From a virus (taxonomy: Duplodnaviria; Caudoviricetes), in IMG/VR virus record IMGVR_UViG_3300031867_000018, positions 45,016 to 109,015 of that record: DNA of 64,000 nucleotides; one strand, written 5' to 3'. Numbering within the stretch: position 1 is the stretch's first letter; every line of letters starts with the position of its first letter. Shown here in pieces: positions 30,069-45,579 of this stretch. Position numbers and translations under genes: made by a program. The notes beneath the pieces were generated by a model that made no database searches, was not told the DNA's origin, and saw only the letters and a program-made list of their open reading frames with translations.

Positions 30069-31334
30069 TTATACGAGATTAACCCGTAACGGGTGTAAAC
30101 CTACACCCTCTATCCCGTCCGCAAACGCATTCGGGAATACTTTTTTCATTATCTGATAACTGCCGTTTACATCGGCATTTATTTCTGTTCCATTATTAGA
30201 TACGAACAAACCTCTATGTACTCTCCTTGACTTATTATAGTTTGCTTCTATTGGCAATTCTTCATCAAGAAAACTTGTACCGCTGGTGTAACTTTCTTCG
30301 GTTTGTTTAAATATAATGCCTGCATTTTCACATTTATAAGCTAACCGAGATACAATACTTAAATATGGTATTTGTGTAAACTTTTGATTGTTTTGTTTAC
30401 CTATATCGGAATTTTGTTTCCAGCCTATGTTATATCCGCAAACCAAAGTATCAATATTATGTTCTATGCAGAAGTCAATAACTTGTTTTGTTGCTTTGTG
30501 AATATAGTTGTCTACTTTGCGATTACGCTTTGCCGTAAAATTCTTCATACGATTAGACCAATCTTTGCCGTTGTTTTTCTTTAATTCGGAACGCATTTGA
30601 GCGATCTGTTTATTATAATATTGGTTTATTGACTTCAAAGGTCTGCCGTTTATTACAAAAGGGTCTGTACCGCAGTTCGTTGTTATGGTCATTAAGTTAT
30701 CTACTCCTAAATCAATAGAAGCTATGCGGCTTGATGTATTGTTTGTTTCGGGTATACCTATTTCGTAAACCACTTCCATTTTATATTCTCCGTTTTGCGG
30801 GACAAAGCGTATTTGCATGAGCTTTGCGGTGTTTGGGATTTTGGTTTTAAAAATATTATTCATCACTTTCAGCGGTTTCCACGAAAAATAAATGTAATTA
30901 TCTTTGACTTTAAATTGATTATTGGCTAAAATCAAAATATAACGTCCGTTTTCCTTGTTGAGGTATTTTGGCATTTTAGGTCTTCCCGAATATTTTGAGG
31001 GATTTTTGCCGTAATCTTTAATGGAAGTGAAAAACGCTTTCCAATTTCTGTCCAAAACACGCAAAGTTTGTTGCCCACATGTTGACCCAATGTCTTTATA
31101 TGGTTCTGAATCTTTTACAATTTTACATAGTTCATAGTATTTTATCCAAACCGCATTTTCTCTTAACCCGTTTTCTTTTTCTTTCGAGGTTTTTATAAAT
31201 TCTTGTCGGATAATATAGTTACCATAGTTATATATGTTTTTTGATTTCCAACTAAATTTATCAATTAAAGAAAAATATGGGTTTGATGATTTTATGCGAT
31301 GAGATTCTATTCTATTGGCTTTCAAATTTATCAC
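30069..31334 (-). CDS. tnpB: TnpB-family RuvC nuclease (IS200/IS605 OrfB-like; likely TTG start at 31325)
   Basis: RuvC-I SIDLGVDNL; canonical RuvC-II Glu absent (VCGYNIGWKQ) with an alternative EESYTS; RuvC-III NADVNG; no Zn-finger cysteines; no tnpA nearby. Confidence 0.9.
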   Translation of the reverse strand: MINLKANRIESHRIKSSNPYFSLIDKFSWKSKNIYNYGNYIIRQEFIKTSKEKENGLRENAVWIKYYELCKIVKDSEPYKDIGSTCGQQTLRVLDRNWKAFFTSIKDYGKNPSKYSGRPKMPKYLNKENGRYILILANNQFKVKDNYIYFSWKPLKVMNNIFKTKIPNTAKLMQIRFVPQNGEYKMEVVYEIGIPETNNTSSRIASIDLGVDNLMTITTNCGTDPFVINGRPLKSINQYYNKQIAQMRSELKKNNGKDWSNRMKNFTAKRNRKVDNYIHKATKQVIDFCIEHNIDTLVCGYNIGWKQNSDIGKQNNQKFTQIPYLSIVSRLAYKCENAGIIFKQTEESYTSGTSFLDEELPIEANYNKSRRVHRGLFVSNNGTEINADVNGSYQIMKKVFPNAFADGIEGVGLHPLRVNLV

Positions 31335-31396
31335 CTTTATCTTTATTCACCTTTGCAAGTTTACTGCTTTGTAATTTTATACAGTTAATTTAATGA

Positions 31397-31696
31397 GTTT
31401 TACTGCTATGCAATTTTATACAGTAGTAAACCCCGAAAATAAAATATGCTAAAATAGCCACAGGTTTATTACTATGTAATTTTACGCAGTAGTAAAACAT
31501 ATATAAGGAGATCTCTTTAACTTTGTCAGGGTTACTACTATGTAATTTTACACGGCAGTAAAACACCTCGACAAATATGCCACTATCATGTTAAGGGTTA
31601 CTACTATGTAATTTTACACGGCAGTAAAACACCTCGACAAATATGCCACTATCATGTTAAGGGTTACTACTATGTAATTTTACACGGCAGTAAAAC
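31397..31696 (-). CRISPR. CRISPR mini-array: 5 x 36-nt repeats, 4 x 30-nt spacers (two identical)
   Basis: Repeats at 31397, 31463, 31529, 31595 and 31661 (period 66); minus-strand consensus GTTTTACTGCCGTGTAAAATTACATAGTAGTAACCC; ATTTGAG abuts the rightmost repeat (31697-31703); repeats degenerate leftward. Confidence 0.9.
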
Positions 31697-32073
31697 CTCA
31701 AATTTCTTCGATTTTACTACTGTTCAAATTAAAGTATTTATGAGTTTTACTTCATTGGACGAACCCCACGCCCACTATCTTGTCGATTTCTCTTCAAGAA
31801 TACTTTTATTCATATTTATTTATTCTGCATTTTGTTGTACACTTCGAGCATTCTTCGCCAATTTTCTTTTATTTGTCTTTCGTCATCCCAATACGACATT
31901 TCATCTTTATAACAATAGTCGTGTTCCGCGTAAAGAGTGGTTGATTAGCCAACTTTCACATTTCTCGTTTTTGACAAATTCGCACAGTGGGCAATTTTCA
32001 CCGTTTCTATCTTGACAATCATCAAAACTATAACACATACGGTTATATTGTTTTACAAATTCTTGAAATTCCA

Positions 32074-37760: not shown

Positions 37761-38177
37761 TCACTTCTTTTCTCTCCTTTTAACGATCACTATAGGTACT
37801 TGACCTTTATCCATTTTTTCTTTGATGACAAGATACGAGCAATATCCGTCAACGAGATAATTGTTGCCATCTATTTTTATAGGGTTGATTTCAAGCAATC
37901 CTTTGTTACATTTATGTTGAAGCTGTCTGTATAACTCTAATTTTTCGGGTTTAGGACTTGTACTTTTGAACCATTTACTAATTTTTATCTCCGATATGTC
38001 AATCATGTTGGTCGTTATTGTTTCAAACCTATTATCATTTATGACTGTGAGTATATCTGTGCGAAATCCGCCTCTTTCACCTAACAATTTTATAAGTTCC
38101 ACTTCACCAACCTTCCAAGATTCAGAGATAATTTTATATATCTTATTGTCCATTTTAACTTTATCGCCTATATTCAT
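37761..38177 (-). CDS. Small ParB-like fold protein
   Basis: 'PIKID...LVDGYCSYLV'. Confidence 0.45.
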   Translation of the reverse strand: MNIGDKVKMDNKIYKIISESWKVGEVELIKLLGERGGFRTDILTVINDNRFETITTNMIDISEIKISKWFKSTSPKPEKLELYRQLQHKCNKGLLEINPIKIDGNNYLVDGYCSYLVIKEKMDKGQVPIVIVKRREKK

Positions 38178-38202: not shown

Positions 38203-39678
38203 TCACCGTATATTTTCTCTTATAGTTTTCATGTTCCCGTTATAGTAGTCTATATAGAAGCAATACAGCCGTTCAGCCATTTTTGTGTAATGTTCTTCAT
38301 CGTCTACAAAATTATCTATAAGCTCAATGTATTGCTCATCCCACGTTTCACTCCATGCTTCAAGCCAATCGACAAACTGGCTTGTCCGTTTTTCTTTCTT
38401 TAACTGGTTATAAAATTTTAAGTATGCTGGTAGTTCTATATCCGATGCCCCTATTTCTGTAACATAGAATACAACTTCCTCATCAGATAACGGTACTTCT
38501 GTAGCATCGTCTATATAACTTTCTTCTGCATTGATATTCTCTTTGGCTTCATCAAAGTAAGACAACCCTAAATCTCCCGTTGAGATAAAATTATCAAGAG
38601 CATTATCCATCATATCAATTCTTGCTTCAATATTTTTCTTTGATGATATATTCTTACTATCGTCCTCAACTAACGCCTTAAACTCTTTTGAATGGACACC
38701 TTTGGTAAACCATTCACACATAAACGATTTGTATTCTTCTTCTGTGATCACCTCATTTTCTAACATACTCAAATATTTATCTACATTCATGATCAGCACA
38801 GGAAAATGTTTTTTATTTACATAATCTGTATATAATTCTTTTTCGGGAAGAACATTGTGTAACGCAGTACATATTACCTCTAACCCCTCAAATGTACTTT
38901 CATTCCACCTATTTGAATATTTCTTGACCAATTTTTCTAATTCGGCAGGTGTTAATTTTGAGTATGAAAAATCATCGTATTCTTGACCAGTCAAAAGAAC
39001 TAAAGCACGAAGAATGAGTTCTTCATAAGCACTTTTCTTCTCTTGGGATGGAGCAAAATAAATACTTCCCGATGTAAATAAAGGATTGTTATTAATAAGC
39101 GATAATATCCTGTTCATCACAGGAATACTTGCAGCGATTTTTGATTTATCAATACTGCTCATTGCAACCCCATTATTCAGGTTGCTCATTATTCTTTCTA
39201 TGTCTTCTTTTGTGTAATCGGAAATATTTTTACTATCGAATTTATACTCAAGAATAATATCTTGCACATCTTCTGGTAAGTCATTAAATGTTTTTCCTGC
39301 AAGTTGAACTTCGGACATAACAGGCTCTACTATTTCTCCGTCTTCACTTTTCTTGTACAATGGAACAAAAACAGACGGGATATCTTTATGCAATTTCATT
39401 TTTTTTGTCACAAACTTCACAACGGTAGAAACTCTTTGTTTTCCGTCTATTAACAATTGAGGAACAGTAAAGTTATTATCCGCACAAGCTATAAACAACG
39501 GAGGAATTGGATCTCCCATTATGATCGATCTTATCAAATTAGATTCTTTGTGACTGTCCCACTGCCCTGCATATCTCTGAATTGAGAAATCCATTTCAAA
39601 ACTTCCGGGAGAGCCTTTAGGTTTGCTCATTTTTTTAATCAATCTTTCAACAACTTCCACACTTGGTTTTATTACCAT
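38203..39678 (-). CDS. DUF262 (ParB/GmrS-like) domain protein
   Basis: 'IQR...QW...LIRSII...PIPPLF', 'LIDGKQR', 'LNNG'. Confidence 0.8.
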   Translation of the reverse strand: MVIKPSVEVVERLIKKMSKPKGSPGSFEMDFSIQRYAGQWDSHKESNLIRSIIMGDPIPPLFIACADNNFTVPQLLIDGKQRVSTVVKFVTKKMKLHKDIPSVFVPLYKKSEDGEIVEPVMSEVQLAGKTFNDLPEDVQDIILEYKFDSKNISDYTKEDIERIMSNLNNGVAMSSIDKSKIAASIPVMNRILSLINNNPLFTSGSIYFAPSQEKKSAYEELILRALVLLTGQEYDDFSYSKLTPAELEKLVKKYSNRWNESTFEGLEVICTALHNVLPEKELYTDYVNKKHFPVLIMNVDKYLSMLENEVITEEEYKSFMCEWFTKGVHSKEFKALVEDDSKNISSKKNIEARIDMMDNALDNFISTGDLGLSYFDEAKENINAEESYIDDATEVPLSDEEVVFYVTEIGASDIELPAYLKFYNQLKKEKRTSQFVDWLEAWSETWDEQYIELIDNFVDDEEHYTKMAERLYCFYIDYYNGNMKTIRENIR

Positions 39679-40277
39679 TCTGACTTCCTCCTTGCCATAA
39701 TTGCAGAGATTATATTACTATCTTCCGATATTGTTAAAATATCTCCTTTAACGATACATACGGGGATATTTATTTGTTTACTAATTTCTTCGGAGTTATA
39801 TCCTTTGATTAAATATTCTACAATTTTCTTTTTTCTTAAAGGTAAAAATTGAATTATATCTTTTATATATTTTACATAATCATCATTTGTTATCTTAGAC
39901 TCTACTTCTGGTGAATCTGACTGTATTAAATCAATTAGTTCTATTTCACTTTCGTCACTTATTGATTGATTAAGACTTTGAGCATAAGTATTAATTTTAC
40001 GCTTTTCTCTGTTTAAACTTGTAGCATAGGTTTTCATTTTATTATTAATAATTACGCTGCAAAACGTAAGCAGTTTTGCTCCTTTGTCGCAATCATATTT
40101 TGGTATATTTAAACTTATCTCTAATAAAGCCTGTCCTTCAAAATCATCATAAGTCACATTTAACGGAATAAAAAGTTTTTCAAATTTCTTTTTCCATAAA
40201 ACACGAATTTGATTTAGTATCTGATCGTAGTTTTCGGTTATTAAATCTTTACACTTTTGTTCCATCGTCATCTTCAC
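39672..40277 (-). CDS. Phage sigma-70 family factor
   Basis: Region 2-like 'DDFE..A....YD..KGAKLLTF', 'SLNQSI', C-terminal HTH. Confidence 0.75.
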   Translation of the reverse strand: MKMTMEQKCKDLITENYDQILNQIRVLWKKKFEKLFIPLNVTYDDFEGQALLEISLNIPKYDCDKGAKLLTFCSVIINNKMKTYATSLNREKRKINTYAQSLNQSISDESEIELIDLIQSDSPEVESKITNDDYVKYIKDIIQFLPLRKKKIVEYLIKGYNSEEISKQINIPVCIVKGDILTISEDSNIISAIMARRKSEW

Positions 40278-40382
40278 CTCTTTTAGCCGAAAACAATAAT
40301 GCGGTTATGAATAAGCCAAACCAACTGCCTAATATGAAACAAATTATATTTGACATTATAATCCCCTCTTTCGTTTTTGATT

Positions 40383-40493
40383 TTCAAACCCTTTGAGGAA
40401 CTCCTGAATACCGATTCGTTAGTACTCAGAAGCTCCATGCAGAAAGGAGATATAACACATGAAATTGGAGCATAGCTCCTCAAAGGGTTTGAA
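40383..40493 (-). ncRNA. Structured RNA unit 1 with anti-SD/anti-AUG loop
   Basis: Perfect 17-bp closing inverted repeat, inner GCTCCA/TGGAGC stem; loop is complementary to AGAAAGGAGATATAACACATG. Confidence 0.6.
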
Positions 40494-40518
40494 TCTCTTT
40501 TGTTGTGCAAATTCTCAC

Positions 40519-40624
40519 TCAAACCCACCGAGGAATCCCTCGACCACAAAGCCGAGAAACTCACATTAATGAAAGGAGAAATTAATGAATAATAAATGGA
40601 GTATGAACTCCTCGTTAGGTTTGA
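40519..40624 (-). ncRNA. Structured RNA unit 2 with anti-SD/anti-AUG loop
   Basis: Same TCAAACC..GAGGA / TCCTC..GGTTTGA closing stem; loop is complementary to GAAAGGAGAAATTAATG. Confidence 0.6.
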
Positions 40625-41284
40625 AACTGCTTTTTTTGATTATCACAGAAAGCATAAACTGTGTAGAGTGTTTCATATCAACGCTCTGTTTGTGCATTAC
40701 GATTCCAGTTTCGGCATCGCTTTACTCAGTCCTGCAAGTACACAGTCGGTTTTGTCTTTATTATTTAGTGCCGATATTTTTGTCAAAATGTCCGCAAGTG
40801 ATGGCACAGAATAATCGTTTTCTTTCACTTCAATAGTCATATAAATGCCTCCTTTATGTTTATAAGAGTTGTCCTTACCTACAGCATTGGTGTACCTTAC
40901 TGCATACGGTATTGACCTTGCTCAATCAAACAACTAAACTTATTTCCCGCTTTAATCGGCGGGATTTTTTATAATTTTATATTCCTGCATAATTATTTCA
41001 CATAATTGCTCGATTTTCTCCTGAACTTCTTTTTTAATGTGAAAAGCAGAACCTATCGTAATCACAGCTGAAATTTTGCCAAGATCGTCTTCATACGGAA
41101 AAGAAAACTTACTTGATTTTTCTTGATTTACAATATCCCACGGCATATATCCTTCAATATCTATTTTTACTGGATATTCTGAGCCGTTACGGAATGTTTT
41201 ATTTATAAGGAATTTTTTGAGTCTATCATTTTATCTCTCTTTTTATATTGTATATTTTTTTGTTTTGTTGTATAATTAAGAAAA

Positions 41285-41551: not shown

Positions 41552-41971
41552 ATGAAACTTACACCTGATTGTGTTAGAGATATACTTTTATATCTTGAAA
41601 ATAATTTAGTAATAGTGAATAGCAATGAATTTTCAGAAATTTCATTAAACCAAATACAAGAAGCTTTGTCTGAAAAATACACAGAAGAAGATGTGATGTA
41701 TAATGTTTACCAACTACATCAAGCACACTTTATTAGCGGTAAAATATATAACCATGGTTCATATATTCTTTCTTTATGTATTATCAATGAAATAACCTTT
41801 GCTGGACATCAATTCTTAGAGACGATACGCCCTGAAACTATTTGGCAAAAGACCAAAACAAGTCTTGGGAAAACAGGGTCATACGCTTTTAATGTTCTTA
41901 CGCAAGTTGCTCAAAATATTGCTATCGAAACGAGTAAAGAAATTGCTTTGAATGCTTTAGGAGTAAAATAA
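41552..41971 (+). CDS. DUF2513-like winged-helix protein
   Basis: 'MKLTPDCVRDILLYLE', 'ITFAGHQFLETIR...W..TK'; AAAGGA RBS. Confidence 0.75.
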   Translation: MKLTPDCVRDILLYLENNLVIVNSNEFSEISLNQIQEALSEKYTEEDVMYNVYQLHQAHFISGKIYNHGSYILSLCIINEITFAGHQFLETIRPETIWQKTKTSLGKTGSYAFNVLTQVAQNIAIETSKEIALNALGVK

Positions 41972-42446: not shown

Positions 42447-43238
42447 ATGTTTCAGGACATTATAGAAAAATTAAGAAAAAAAAGAGAGCTAAAAAAAGTA
42501 GATGTAGCAAAAGCTATTGGCGTCGAAGATAGCACTTATAGAAATTATGCGGCAGGTAGACGAGAACCAAGCTATGAAATTCTATGTAAACTTGCAGACT
42601 TCTACAATGTTACTACTGATTACCTTCTCGGTCGTGAACAACAGCCACCGCCAGACCCAATTGAACAGTTTGTTCAGGGAATGGGACTAAGCGAAAACGA
42701 AGCAATACTTGTTAAGACTTTCTTTTCTATAAAGAAAGAAAAAAGAAGGGAATTTATCGAAGCATTTTGCATAGGTGCAAGCGAGGAATTAGAAAAGAAA
42801 AAACAGAAATTAGATGCTATCACCGAAGAACAAACTGCTGCAACAGAAGAAAATAGTGATAATATCGTAGAAATACCACTAATGGTATCACGAGTGTCCG
42901 CAGGAACGGGATGTATGCTCTCGGAAGACGAGATTGACGAGATGTTTGAAATTGACAGAAGTATCTACCCTAAAGCCGATTTTGCTACTAAAGTCCGGGG
43001 AGATAGTATGATTCCCCGATTTAATGACGGAGATGTCGTACTTGTACATAAACAAGAAACGATTGAAAGCGGACAAATTGGGGTATTTATGCTGAATGGC
43101 GACGGATACATAAAGAAATTAGTCGCTGAGAACGGAAAAACAATATTGAGATCTCTTAATTCGGAATATAAAGACATAGAAGTGTCTGAAAATGATAATC
43201 TTATATGTAGGGGGCTTGTATTGTATAGGTTGGAATAA
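42447..43238 (+). CDS. CI/LexA-type repressor (XRE HTH plus S24 peptidase)
   Basis: XRE N-terminus; VSAG cleavage site; GDSM Ser and YIKK Lys. Confidence 0.9.
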   Translation: MFQDIIEKLRKKRELKKVDVAKAIGVEDSTYRNYAAGRREPSYEILCKLADFYNVTTDYLLGREQQPPPDPIEQFVQGMGLSENEAILVKTFFSIKKEKRREFIEAFCIGASEELEKKKQKLDAITEEQTAATEENSDNIVEIPLMVSRVSAGTGCMLSEDEIDEMFEIDRSIYPKADFATKVRGDSMIPRFNDGDVVLVHKQETIESGQIGVFMLNGDGYIKKLVAENGKTILRSLNSEYKDIEVSENDNLICRGLVLYRLE

Positions 43239-43481: not shown

Positions 43482-44174
43482 TTATAAACTATTTTCTTTT
43501 GTAACTGCTGCGTTATGTATACACGAAACCAAATTGTAAACTTCATTTATGCAGTTATCAACATAGTTCTCGTTTATATCTTCCTGAATAGCTGTTTCGT
43601 GCTTTCTGTCTATTTGGTGGGCAATTTGGTTCCTTCTTTGAAATAAATTTACAACAAATTGCTTTCCTGTTTCGTAAGAAGAAAACGCAGACGATAAAAC
43701 ATCTTTGAAAGAAATTCCCATTAAATTTACTTGATCTTTCATTTGTTCAAAACCTAAGTAAACTTCTTTACTGAATCTTTCATTTAAGTATTCTGTCAAC
43801 CATTGTACTGATTCGGGTGCAGCAATACCTTTTTCGATATACTTCATCGAAACCATAAGATTTTGATATTTTAAAGATTTTTCCCAACGACCGACAAACA
43901 TGCTACTTATTGCATATTTGCTTAGTTCATGAAGATAAAAGTCGAGTATGGATTCGATAAATACTATTTGCGAACGTAAAACATTCTTTCCTTCGGTTTC
44001 CTTTGATTGATTTATTAATTCTCTTGCTATAGGAGTTTGGTTTTTTATATACTCAAGACTTTCGTCAAAATGCTGTTTTATCTCATCTAAGCTAAAATTA
44101 ACTACTGTTTTAGTTGGTATAGGATCACGGGTATTCTCAGGACGCTGAGATAAAGAAAGACTAATATTGTCCAT
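43482..44174 (-). CDS. HEPN-domain protein
   Basis: All-helical pattern with N-terminal 'ESILDFYLHE' and RxxxxH motif 'RNQIAH'. Confidence 0.7.
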   Translation of the reverse strand: MDNISLSLSQRPENTRDPIPTKTVVNFSLDEIKQHFDESLEYIKNQTPIARELINQSKETEGKNVLRSQIVFIESILDFYLHELSKYAISSMFVGRWEKSLKYQNLMVSMKYIEKGIAAPESVQWLTEYLNERFSKEVYLGFEQMKDQVNLMGISFKDVLSSAFSSYETGKQFVVNLFQRRNQIAHQIDRKHETAIQEDINENYVDNCINEVYNLVSCIHNAAVTKENSL

Positions 44175-44175
44175 T

Positions 44176-45432
44176 CTATTCCTTCTTTCTCTCGGTGAAT
44201 AATTTGGCAAGATTATTATTTAACATGGGTATTGCTCCGTATTTGCCGTTAATGTAGCCTCTGTGAATGTTATCGTCTTTCCGGACATTTTTTATTTCCG
44301 CAAGAGAATATAAATCTGTTGACCTATCTTCCTCTTTTAATTCTGTAAACCATATTTGATCCCTTCTGAAAAGAGACAAATCAAGTATGCTTGTATTATG
44401 AGTTGTAAAAAACAATTGAGCCGGAAAAGTATCTTCTAAATCGGCAAAAGTCTTTATTATGTTATATATCAATGCTTCATGGAAATTTATTTCAAGTTCA
44501 TCGCAAAACAAGATTCTATGATTTTCTATAATGTCCATCAAAGGACAAGCAAACTCGAATATTTTTTTTACTCCATCAGATTCTTCGGACAATAAGTTTG
44601 TCTCAAATGTATCATATACTATATATGCATCTAATCGCTCCGAATATGAGTCAATGATACGGGTTTTAAGTTCTTCACTTAAAATAGATAAAAAATTATC
44701 ATTTTTCAAATCCTGTTTTTTTATTTCTATTCTTATGTCCTGTATGTTAACTCCCAAAGCGTTGGCAAAATTAATCACCTGTTTTTTTACAGCAGGATTC
44801 TTTTTGATTGATGTAAGAGATTTTTCCAGCCAATTTTCATTTGTTTTTTTTCCATAAAAAATCATATCGTCTTTAAAGAAGGAAAATACATCTTTAACAA
44901 CATCTACTTGACTAAAATTAGCAGCACATGATAAAAAAAGGCGATTTGGGGCAATAACATCTTTACAAGTATCAAACTTTCTCTTAAATTTGTCACCTGA
45001 TGCATAAGAATTATTTTCTCTTTCAAATATTTTTACGGCTCTGCCGTTTGGAAAATAATATAAATACTCCCCGGAAACCTCATTTTTGCACAACGAAAAA
45101 CTATATACATATCTTATATTATTTTTGATAAACTGCATATAATACTCGCTTTTTTCATTCTCTCCCAATAATTTATGTGGCAACTGGTGGATCATCGTAC
45201 CGGGTTGATGACTGATACTGTTTAGAACTAATCTTTTTACATACATGATGGCATCTATGAAATTACTTTTCCCGGAACCATTAGCACCATATATAACAGC
45301 ACTTTTAAGTATTTTATATTTTCCAAAAGAAAACAATCGTTCTTGAAATGTATCATCTGTACCTGCGAGTGCAGAAAAAGTTACTTTATCTTTTATGGAT
45401 TTATGATTAGAGCATGAAAATTCCAACAGCAT
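44176..45432 (-). CDS. ABC-type AAA ATPase (RloA/AAA_21-like)
   Basis: YGANGSGKSN, ESDG, LFCDELE, FTTH, RRDQIWF, GKYGAIP. Confidence 0.85.
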   Translation of the reverse strand: MLLEFSCSNHKSIKDKVTFSALAGTDDTFQERLFSFGKYKILKSAVIYGANGSGKSNFIDAIMYVKRLVLNSISHQPGTMIHQLPHKLLGENEKSEYYMQFIKNNIRYVYSFSLCKNEVSGEYLYYFPNGRAVKIFERENNSYASGDKFKRKFDTCKDVIAPNRLFLSCAANFSQVDVVKDVFSFFKDDMIFYGKKTNENWLEKSLTSIKKNPAVKKQVINFANALGVNIQDIRIEIKKQDLKNDNFLSILSEELKTRIIDSYSERLDAYIVYDTFETNLLSEESDGVKKIFEFACPLMDIIENHRILFCDELEINFHEALIYNIIKTFADLEDTFPAQLFFTTHNTSILDLSLFRRDQIWFTELKEEDRSTDLYSLAEIKNVRKDDNIHRGYINGKYGAIPMLNNNLAKLFTERKKE

Positions 45433-45579
45433 AGTAAAACCTCCTCGATTGCACATATTATACCACCTTTCTTATGATTTGACAAGTATTTTTGTTATTA
45501 TTTCTCAAATTTCTTGATATATTCATTAACATGCAGACACAAACAATATATTCTTCATTTTATGATTTGCAATGAAACA

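Follow-up and report, generated by a model that had tools for sequence, protein, structure and literature searches.

Two tandem units of about 110 nt in the early region of a phage raise the question of whether they act as RNA, which strand is read and what such an RNA would do there. The source is an IMG/VR virus record of 109 kb whose ends are direct repeats, and the stretch of DNA analysed, called the window here, comprises its bases 45016-109015 (64,000 nt). The phage is temperate, rare and large, and belongs to the bovine gut or rumen; among public runs, a single one, a bovine gut metagenome, holds the full DNA. The only lead to a host is JAZRAE010000037.1, a 49.5-kb contig in a MAG of a Eubacteriales bacterium, whose terminase is 89% identical to that of the phage. 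The early region (by DNA search), the 491-aa protein and a match to the two-unit RNA model R2 were all absent from this MAG, indicating that the structural and early modules are mosaic.

The two units, U1 and U2, fall within the lysogeny-switch region (Table 1). The order on the minus strand is the 77-aa, 80-aa, 64-aa and 47-aa ORFs, the RNA units, the 35-aa ORF, the sigma-like gene and the DUF262/GmrSD_N gene. The DUF2513 gene opposes this leftward early region, with 24 nt between it and the 80-aa ORF start, and has the look of an inserted moron. A HEPN (RiboL-PSP) protein and a 426-aa ORF (43482-45456, minus strand) adjoin the repressor gene and, together with the DUF262/GmrSD_N gene, suggest that defence genes surround the switch region. 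Elsewhere in the window, at 31380-31700 (minus strand), five 36-nt direct repeats starting GTTTTACTGCCGTG were observed beside a 421-aa ORF (30069-31334). Their spacers are 30 nt long, two of them are mutually identical, and the repeats decay towards the adjoining ORF.

Table 1. Coordinates of U1, U2 and neighbouring features in the window
Feature	Position	Strand	Remarks
LexA/CI-type repressor gene	42447-43238	+	
DUF2513 gene	41552-41971	+	
77-aa ORF		-	Coiled-coil/HTH; preceded by a good TTGACA-17-TATTAT promoter
80-aa ORF		-	Leftward of the 77-aa ORF
64-aa ORF		-	Leftward of the 77-aa ORF, after the 80-aa ORF
47-aa ORF	40697-40840	-	Strong SD; coding-like codon usage; directly precedes U2/U1
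Promoter-like site	40639-40667	-	Extended -10 (TG-n-GATAAT); 9/12 matches in consensus scan, with TG
U2	40518-40626	-	Upstream module: closing helix, large hairpin (27-31-nt loop), 7-bp side hairpin
U2 large loop	40566-40596	-	CUCCUUUC at 40571-40578, flanked by direct repeat UUCAUUAAU
U1	40383-40494	-	Downstream module: 19-bp closing helix, P2 and P3 side hairpin
U1 large loop	40438-40465	-	28 nt; CUCCUUUC at 40442-40449
35-aa membrane-peptide ORF	40249-40356	-	Directly downstream of U1; coding-like codon usage
Sigma-like gene	39672-40277	-	199/201 aa (ATG at 40271 gives 199 aa)
DUF262/GmrSD_N gene	38203-39678	-	Beyond the sigma-like gene
ORF1	40459-40569	+	36 aa; proposed driver is the promoter-like site 40334-40362
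ORF2	40585-40836	+	83 aa; same proposed driver

The folding of the two units was analysed on both strands. A preliminary description, made from the letters alone, had placed two units of about 110 nt here, and both were present (112 nt for U1, 109 nt for U2), each with the TCAAACC-N4-GAGGA / TCCTC-N4-GGTTTGA arms. In U1, the closing helix pairs 40475-40493 with 40383-40401, P2 pairs 40466-40471 with 40432-40437, and the P3 side hairpin pairs 40421-40431 with 40402-40412. The closing helices measure 19-20 bp and have A-rich single-stranded flanks on the minus strand. The minimum free energy (MFE) of the minus strand was -51.0 kcal/mol for U1 (z -7.55) and -40.2 kcal/mol for U2 (z -5.53), with 0/200 shuffles as stable; the plus strand folded more weakly (-39.6 and -26.3 kcal/mol). 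The MFE fold of U2 is a three-way junction, and the three-way junction of U1 evaluates at -49.0 kcal/mol. Each unit also has a near-isoenergetic alternative fold with a 5′ mini-hairpin and a lengthened side hairpin, which is the MFE fold of U1 and the RNAalifold consensus. In the alternative fold the 5′ GGAGC pairs with the adjacent GCUCC to form the mini-hairpin while the 3′ GGAGC extends P3, and the two folds thus swap repeated GGAG(C/U) and (G/A)(C/U)UCC elements. The four exchanging elements are co-changed in U2 (C>U, G>A, C>U, G>A), indicating that both folds are possible in both units. Inside a 371-nt context both modules kept their independent folds.

On the minus strand U1 and U2 have A-rich flanks and no U-tract follows either unit; they are therefore neither terminators nor stand-alone terminated genes. 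An intrinsic terminator or attenuator was rejected as well, the terminator-like calls on this strand being only 5-bp mini-hairpins inside the units. The extended -10 site upstream of U2 would place the start of an RNA a few bases ahead of U2; being a consensus match, the site is not evidence of function.

The strand on which the structure is kept was then read from the pairs themselves. The minus strand of U1 forms 32 Watson-Crick and 4 wobble pairs with no mismatch, and that of U2 forms 26 Watson-Crick pairs, 7 wobble pairs and 1 mismatch. The remark that several mismatches become G-U pairs on the minus strand was correct and understated the case: with 4 wobbles in U1 and 7 in U2, the plus strand has 0. 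All 11 minus-strand wobbles become A-C mismatches on the plus strand (36-pair consensus; binomial p ~0.001). A natural variant of U1 gave a second line of evidence. In run X3, another bovine gut run, a 348-nt contig covers 40199-40493 and differs at 16 positions, 8 of them in U1. At two positions (40405 T>C and 40423 T>C) a minus-strand A-U pair is replaced by G-U, whereas the plus strand loses the pair; at a third (40421 A>G) a minus-strand G-U is replaced by G-C. All three stem substitutions thus keep minus-strand pairing, and the variant folds as a three-way junction at -52.2 kcal/mol. The other changes in U1 lie in the side-hairpin loop (2) and in the large loop (3), and the closing helix and P2 are unchanged.

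A covariance model built from U1 and its natural variant detected U2 at full length on the minus strand (42.8 bits, E = 1.5e-9); a search with the covariance model returned no further unit in the window or in the rest of the phage. In the U1/U2 alignment, 98.6% of the cells of 36 pairs are paired, and 8 pairs carry double compensatory changes, compared with 0-2 double changes when the partners were slid as a control. These changes were counted on a model-fitted alignment of two paralogues and one near-identical variant only. The covariation therefore supports the structure and does not prove it, as it comes from two sequences and a fitted alignment. In the side hairpin and in 4 middle pairs of the closing helix the letters differ wholly between U1 and U2 while the pairing is kept. 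The outer helix, GAGGAG/UUCCUC, CUCCA and CUCCUUUC are identical in the two units, indicating a sequence-specific constraint on those parts. The 47-aa and 35-aa ORFs that flank the units on the minus strand have codon-usage scores within the range of true genes. Folding, wobble asymmetry, the X3 variant, the flanking ORFs and covariation all agree with the proposal of structured RNAs encoded by the minus strand. On this evidence U1 and U2 are paralogous copies of one minus-strand RNA structure that is under selection and exposes a conserved anti-Shine-Dalgarno (anti-SD) motif.

The motif lies in the large loops, which are AU-rich. CUCCUUUC is invariant, common to both large loops and unpaired in either alternative fold. 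The same letters make up the anti-Shine-Dalgarno tail at the 3′ end of 16S rRNA in Firmicutes; a search of three candidate host MAGs for this 16S end showed that they lack it. The X3 variant retains the CUCCUU of the U1 loop and the 22 nt 5′ of it, and the 3 loop changes lie on the 3′ side. The loops had been described as exact complements of a strong SD, a spacer and a start codon. They do read as quoted, with complements of the form AAAGGAG-N9-ATG and AAAGGAG-N6-ATG, but the match to the start codon carries little statistical weight: CAU is frequent in AU-rich loops and is present on either side of the anti-SD motif.

Given that the loops mirror start regions, we searched for possible targets. 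The claim that the RNAs silence specific host or phage mRNAs found no backing, as searches of the phage, the MAG and 401 genomes gave generic start regions at best. The 109-kb phage contained no site within 6 mismatches of either 27-nt loop complement. Its best-pairing start regions were those of a 138-aa gene at 38177 (-25.2 kcal/mol) and of a 2435-aa gene (-22.3 and -21.1 kcal/mol). Loops whose flanks had been shuffled around an unchanged core matched or beat the best phage pairings in 6/60 cases for L1 and 33/60 for L2, and phage start regions paired no better with the real loops than with the shuffled-flank loops. The adjacent start regions of the 35-aa, sigma-like and 47-aa genes paired weakly (-9.7 to -15.8 kcal/mol): the two loops gave -13.7 and -13.3 kcal/mol against the 35-aa ORF, which does not exceed what a generic SD yields, and -15.8 and -9.7 kcal/mol against the sigma-like gene. 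No loop-complement match within 3 mismatches was present in the MAG carrying the related phage. In 401 genomes of the family of this MAG, the 23-nt loop-1 complement had 25 sites, compared with 6 for the reversed control. All 25 were ordinary gene starts of the form AAAGGAGA-AT-rich-ATGAAA, the best of them with 2 mismatches, which means that the loop complement is essentially a consensus start region.

Such a consensus-like complement is compatible with an RNA acting broadly on start regions, with a target in a host not sampled so far, or with real starts on the plus strand, the last being disfavoured because of the strand evidence. The targets may therefore be a class of strong starts or a gene of an unsampled host. 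Because the phage genes themselves carry the same SD, they too would be affected by a generic anti-SD RNA. A 183-nt contig from a goat-gut run (X2) contains a 36-nt stretch 83% like the U2 loop complement (40565-40600), with unrelated flanks; this stretch may be a plain gene start or else a possible target.

The genes downstream of the units were also characterized. The 35-aa ORF encodes a peptide with a hydrophobic N-terminus and an acidic tail, and overlaps the sigma-like gene by 23 nt. Four X3 substitutions in it (40315, 40324, 40327 and 40330) fall at third codon positions, and a fifth (40252) at the third position of the stop codon; another, at 40276, falls at a first codon position of the 35-aa ORF, overlapping the listed GTG start of the sigma-like gene. 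The peptide had no Pfam match, and its look-alikes in the atlas include DUF3789 small proteins, with scores below 0.9 only. The downstream gene had been called a sigma factor gene, and its sigma-like character held up: the protein matched phrog_1740 (6.4e-8), has a GerE/LuxR-like, sigma-region-4-like C-terminus, and gave weak matches to sigma-sized ORFs in 217/401 Eubacteriales genomes. The top Foldseek PDB matches of its low-confidence model (pLDDT 61) were all ECF or sigma-28-type, at E ~3e-3 and weaker. One homologue, 47% identical and encoded on a 1039-bp contig, was found among 5.8 billion proteins. The assignment as a sigma factor is thus moderately supported.

Relatives of the units were sought widely. 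As anticipated, no known family fits: Rfam gave nothing at the gathering threshold in the window and noise only at E up to 10 in 40200-41000. The blastn search of the region against phages and plasmids returned no match, and the arms pattern had 0 matches in IMG/VR, GTDB genomes (596 Gb) and JGI metagenomes. Two looser motif patterns gave 4 matches in IMG/VR, all rejected on inspection as chance. Neighbour-gene searches in IMG/VR revealed no relative of the sigma-like and 491-aa proteins, and one locus for the repressor, at 28% identity; an alignment of the sigma-like protein and its only homologue found nothing in JGI metagenomes. The two-unit model R2 had no match in 151 genomes of the MAG's family, and literature searches turned up no description of this RNA. 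The only relatives of U1 and U2 were near-identical strains in ruminant gut runs. Of these, the X3 contig matches the window through U1 (to 40493) and continues with 55 nt unlike the window, indicating that the second unit or the spacer differs between strains. That U1 and U2 form a new RNA structure, seen in a single rare lineage, is well supported.

U1 and U2 probably control translation. Our tentative first choice, on this analysis, is that they are cut out of the early transcript and repress translation as antisense RNAs, in the manner of P1 C4 or Listeria LhrC. Blocking ribosome binding by loop pairing is the mode of P1 C4, Listeria LhrC and the RNAIII hairpins of S. aureus. C4 is released from its operon transcript by RNase P, and helices of 19-20 bp are typical substrates of RNase III. 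The transcription, processing, base-pairing activity and target that we infer for U1 and U2 would run as follows. Both would be made within the leftward early (cro-side) transcript of the temperate phage, perhaps with additional transcription from the extended -10 promoter just upstream of U2. Each copy would form a long closing helix, a sequence-variable side hairpin and a hairpin displaying an unpaired 27-28-nt AU-rich loop. Host RNases would cut the modules from the polycistronic RNA, and the stable products would pair via their loops with Shine-Dalgarno/start regions and block ribosome binding. We rank this reading first because the motif sits in the large loop of a stable scaffold, because conservation goes beyond the needs of pairing, and because the layout resembles c4-icd-ant. 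That layout in P1, as presented in PMC8198154, consists of an RNA, a small ORF and an overlapping regulator gene, and the U1/U2 locus recalls it.

Features of the plus strand speak against the repressor reading, namely the promoter-like site at 40334-40362 and the T-runs after each unit. A strong intrinsic terminator on the plus strand (40945-40964; 7-bp GC-rich stem, T6) was also observed, with a minus-strand ORF on either side and no convincing plus-strand gene upstream; it may stop antisense transcription across the RNA units. Together, the promoter-like site, the T-runs and the terminator suggest that the plus strand may also be transcribed.

A role in cis is a serious possibility, nearly as likely as the repressor reading, and requires no unseen target. 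The units would then be a leader or intercistronic element, serving as processing or stability sites, or as a bistable switch for translation of the 35-aa ORF and sigma-like gene or for read-through; such a switch would time the move to later gene expression. RNase III hairpins separate the early genes of T7 and of Bacillus phage SP82. The position of U1 and U2 inside an operon, where no minus-strand terminator follows either, and the closing helices of 19-20 bp with A-rich flanks are in line with this, as are the two near-isoenergetic folds, both kept in both units through four coordinated changes. The failure to find a trans target also favours a cis role, and the promoter-like site upstream of U2 would make the units a 5′ leader. 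However, the loops pair weakly with both downstream starts, as given above, and neither loop captures the SD of the 35-aa ORF when the context is folded. Moreover, a plain processing site could do without a three-way junction and without a 28-nt loop that conserves an anti-SD motif.

We consider it improbable that the locus is a sense/antisense pair in which small plus-strand ORFs have real starts and the minus-strand RNA is a cis-antisense, as in P22 sar/ant or type I toxin-antitoxin-like systems. On the plus strand the loops do read as near-ideal starts, with AAAGGAG, a 6-9-nt AT-rich spacer and ATG followed by AAA or AAT, and starts of this type match real gene starts in related genomes four times as often as the reversed control. 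The stop of ORF1 just precedes the SD of ORF2, and promoter-like and terminator-like sites exist on this strand. However, the plus-strand fold is much weaker, with 12 pairs mismatched, and natural X3 changes break plus-strand pairs. Translation of the plus-strand ORFs, which the preliminary description had named as a refuting outcome, is not favoured: the codon-usage minima of ORF1 and ORF2 (-0.12 and -0.11 per codon) are below the 5th percentile of real genes (0.087). ORF2 is antisense to the coding-like 47-aa ORF, the similarity to X3 ends after U1, that is from codon 12 of ORF1 on, and the plus-strand ORFs had no Pfam match.

We would give similarly little weight to a bolder version of the repressor reading, in which the scaffold would be a reusable, bistable three-way-junction display cassette, with phages of the lineage loading different anti-start-region loops and exchanging units. 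The X3 phage, which keeps U1 yet diverges right after it, is the observation that bears on this. If true, the units would be a small programmable array of translational silencers against chosen host or rival-phage genes, an RNA-only guide-like system needing no dedicated protein.

A DNA-level or selfish element (miniature inverted repeat, recombination or inversion site, or protein-binding palindrome) with an incidental RNA fold is very improbable, since the 16-20-bp terminal inverted repeats of each unit and an 8-nt outer arm identical in 4/4 copies are set against an 11:0 wobble asymmetry that is unexpected for double-stranded DNA sites, no other copy of the arms in the phage, IMG/VR, 596 Gb of genomes or JGI metagenomes, no visible target-site duplication and no recombinase gene adjoining the units. 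A MITE or repeated palindromic element was rejected on the same grounds, with two units only in the phage and no arms match in three large collections. Several other candidates were dropped: a riboswitch (variable AU-rich loops, no Rfam match), an integron attC site (no integrase, and core sites that depart from GTTRRRY), a CsrA sponge (workable only on the plus strand) and promoters for an ECF-like sigma factor (no consistent -35/-10 pair). The phi29 pRNA and put-type antitermination RNA were considered and dropped as well.

If U1 and U2 do repress as processed antisense RNAs, they would represent the equivalent of P1 C4 in a Firmicute phage. Placed at the step to the phage sigma-like factor, they would make RNA control part of the lysis-lysogeny circuit. 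A conserved scaffold with free loops could also become a compact gene-silencing tool for anaerobic Firmicutes.

Comparison with known systems places the units between several classes. Like the RNase III hairpins of T7 and SP82, they are repeated conserved helices of ~20 bp (about two turns) between early ORFs of the same strand, but those sites are simple hairpins with internal loops, and have neither a three-way junction nor a conserved anti-SD loop. Structured 5′ leaders with anti-SD elements are known in type I toxin mRNAs (fst RNA I, aapA1). U1 and U2 resemble them in carrying an anti-SD directly upstream of a 35-aa hydrophobic peptide with an acidic tail. On the other hand, the peptide has no toxin-family match and overlaps the sigma-like gene, the locus is not a self-contained cassette, and pairing between the anti-SD loops and the SD of this ORF is poor. 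The plus-strand site at 40334-40362, a consensus match only, is a candidate promoter for an antisense RNA.

C4 of P1 and P7 is a phage immunity-region antisense RNA made from the operon that it controls (Citron & Schuster 1990, as cited in PMC8198154). According to the account in PMC8198154, C4 precedes the small ORF icd and the regulator gene ant, and its exposed loops pair with the ribosome-binding region. Like C4, U1 and U2 lie upstream of a small ORF and a regulator gene in a phage immunity region. Unlike C4, they gave no match even at E up to 10 to the Rfam C4 covariance model, whose family includes P1/P7 C4 and P4 CI, form a three-way junction in two tandem copies, and have loops that do not match the start region of the next gene. 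Moreover, the host of C4 is a proteobacterium, whereas the candidate host of the present phage is a low-GC Firmicute.

In Firmicutes, CU-rich hairpin loops pair with Shine-Dalgarno regions in LhrC1-5 of Listeria monocytogenes, RNAIII and RsaE/RoxS. U1 and U2 are unlike LhrC, RsaE and RoxS in giving no Rfam match to those models. LhrC, RsaE and RoxS have their own promoters and terminators, whereas U1 and U2 lie in an operon without terminators and with one promoter-like site, upstream of U2. Like LhrC, U1 and U2 are multicopy, tandem and ~100 nt long, with an exposed CU-rich anti-SD motif in hairpin loops. However, LhrC-type RNAs use a short UCCC seed, whereas the 27-28-nt loops of U1 and U2 mirror a whole start region.
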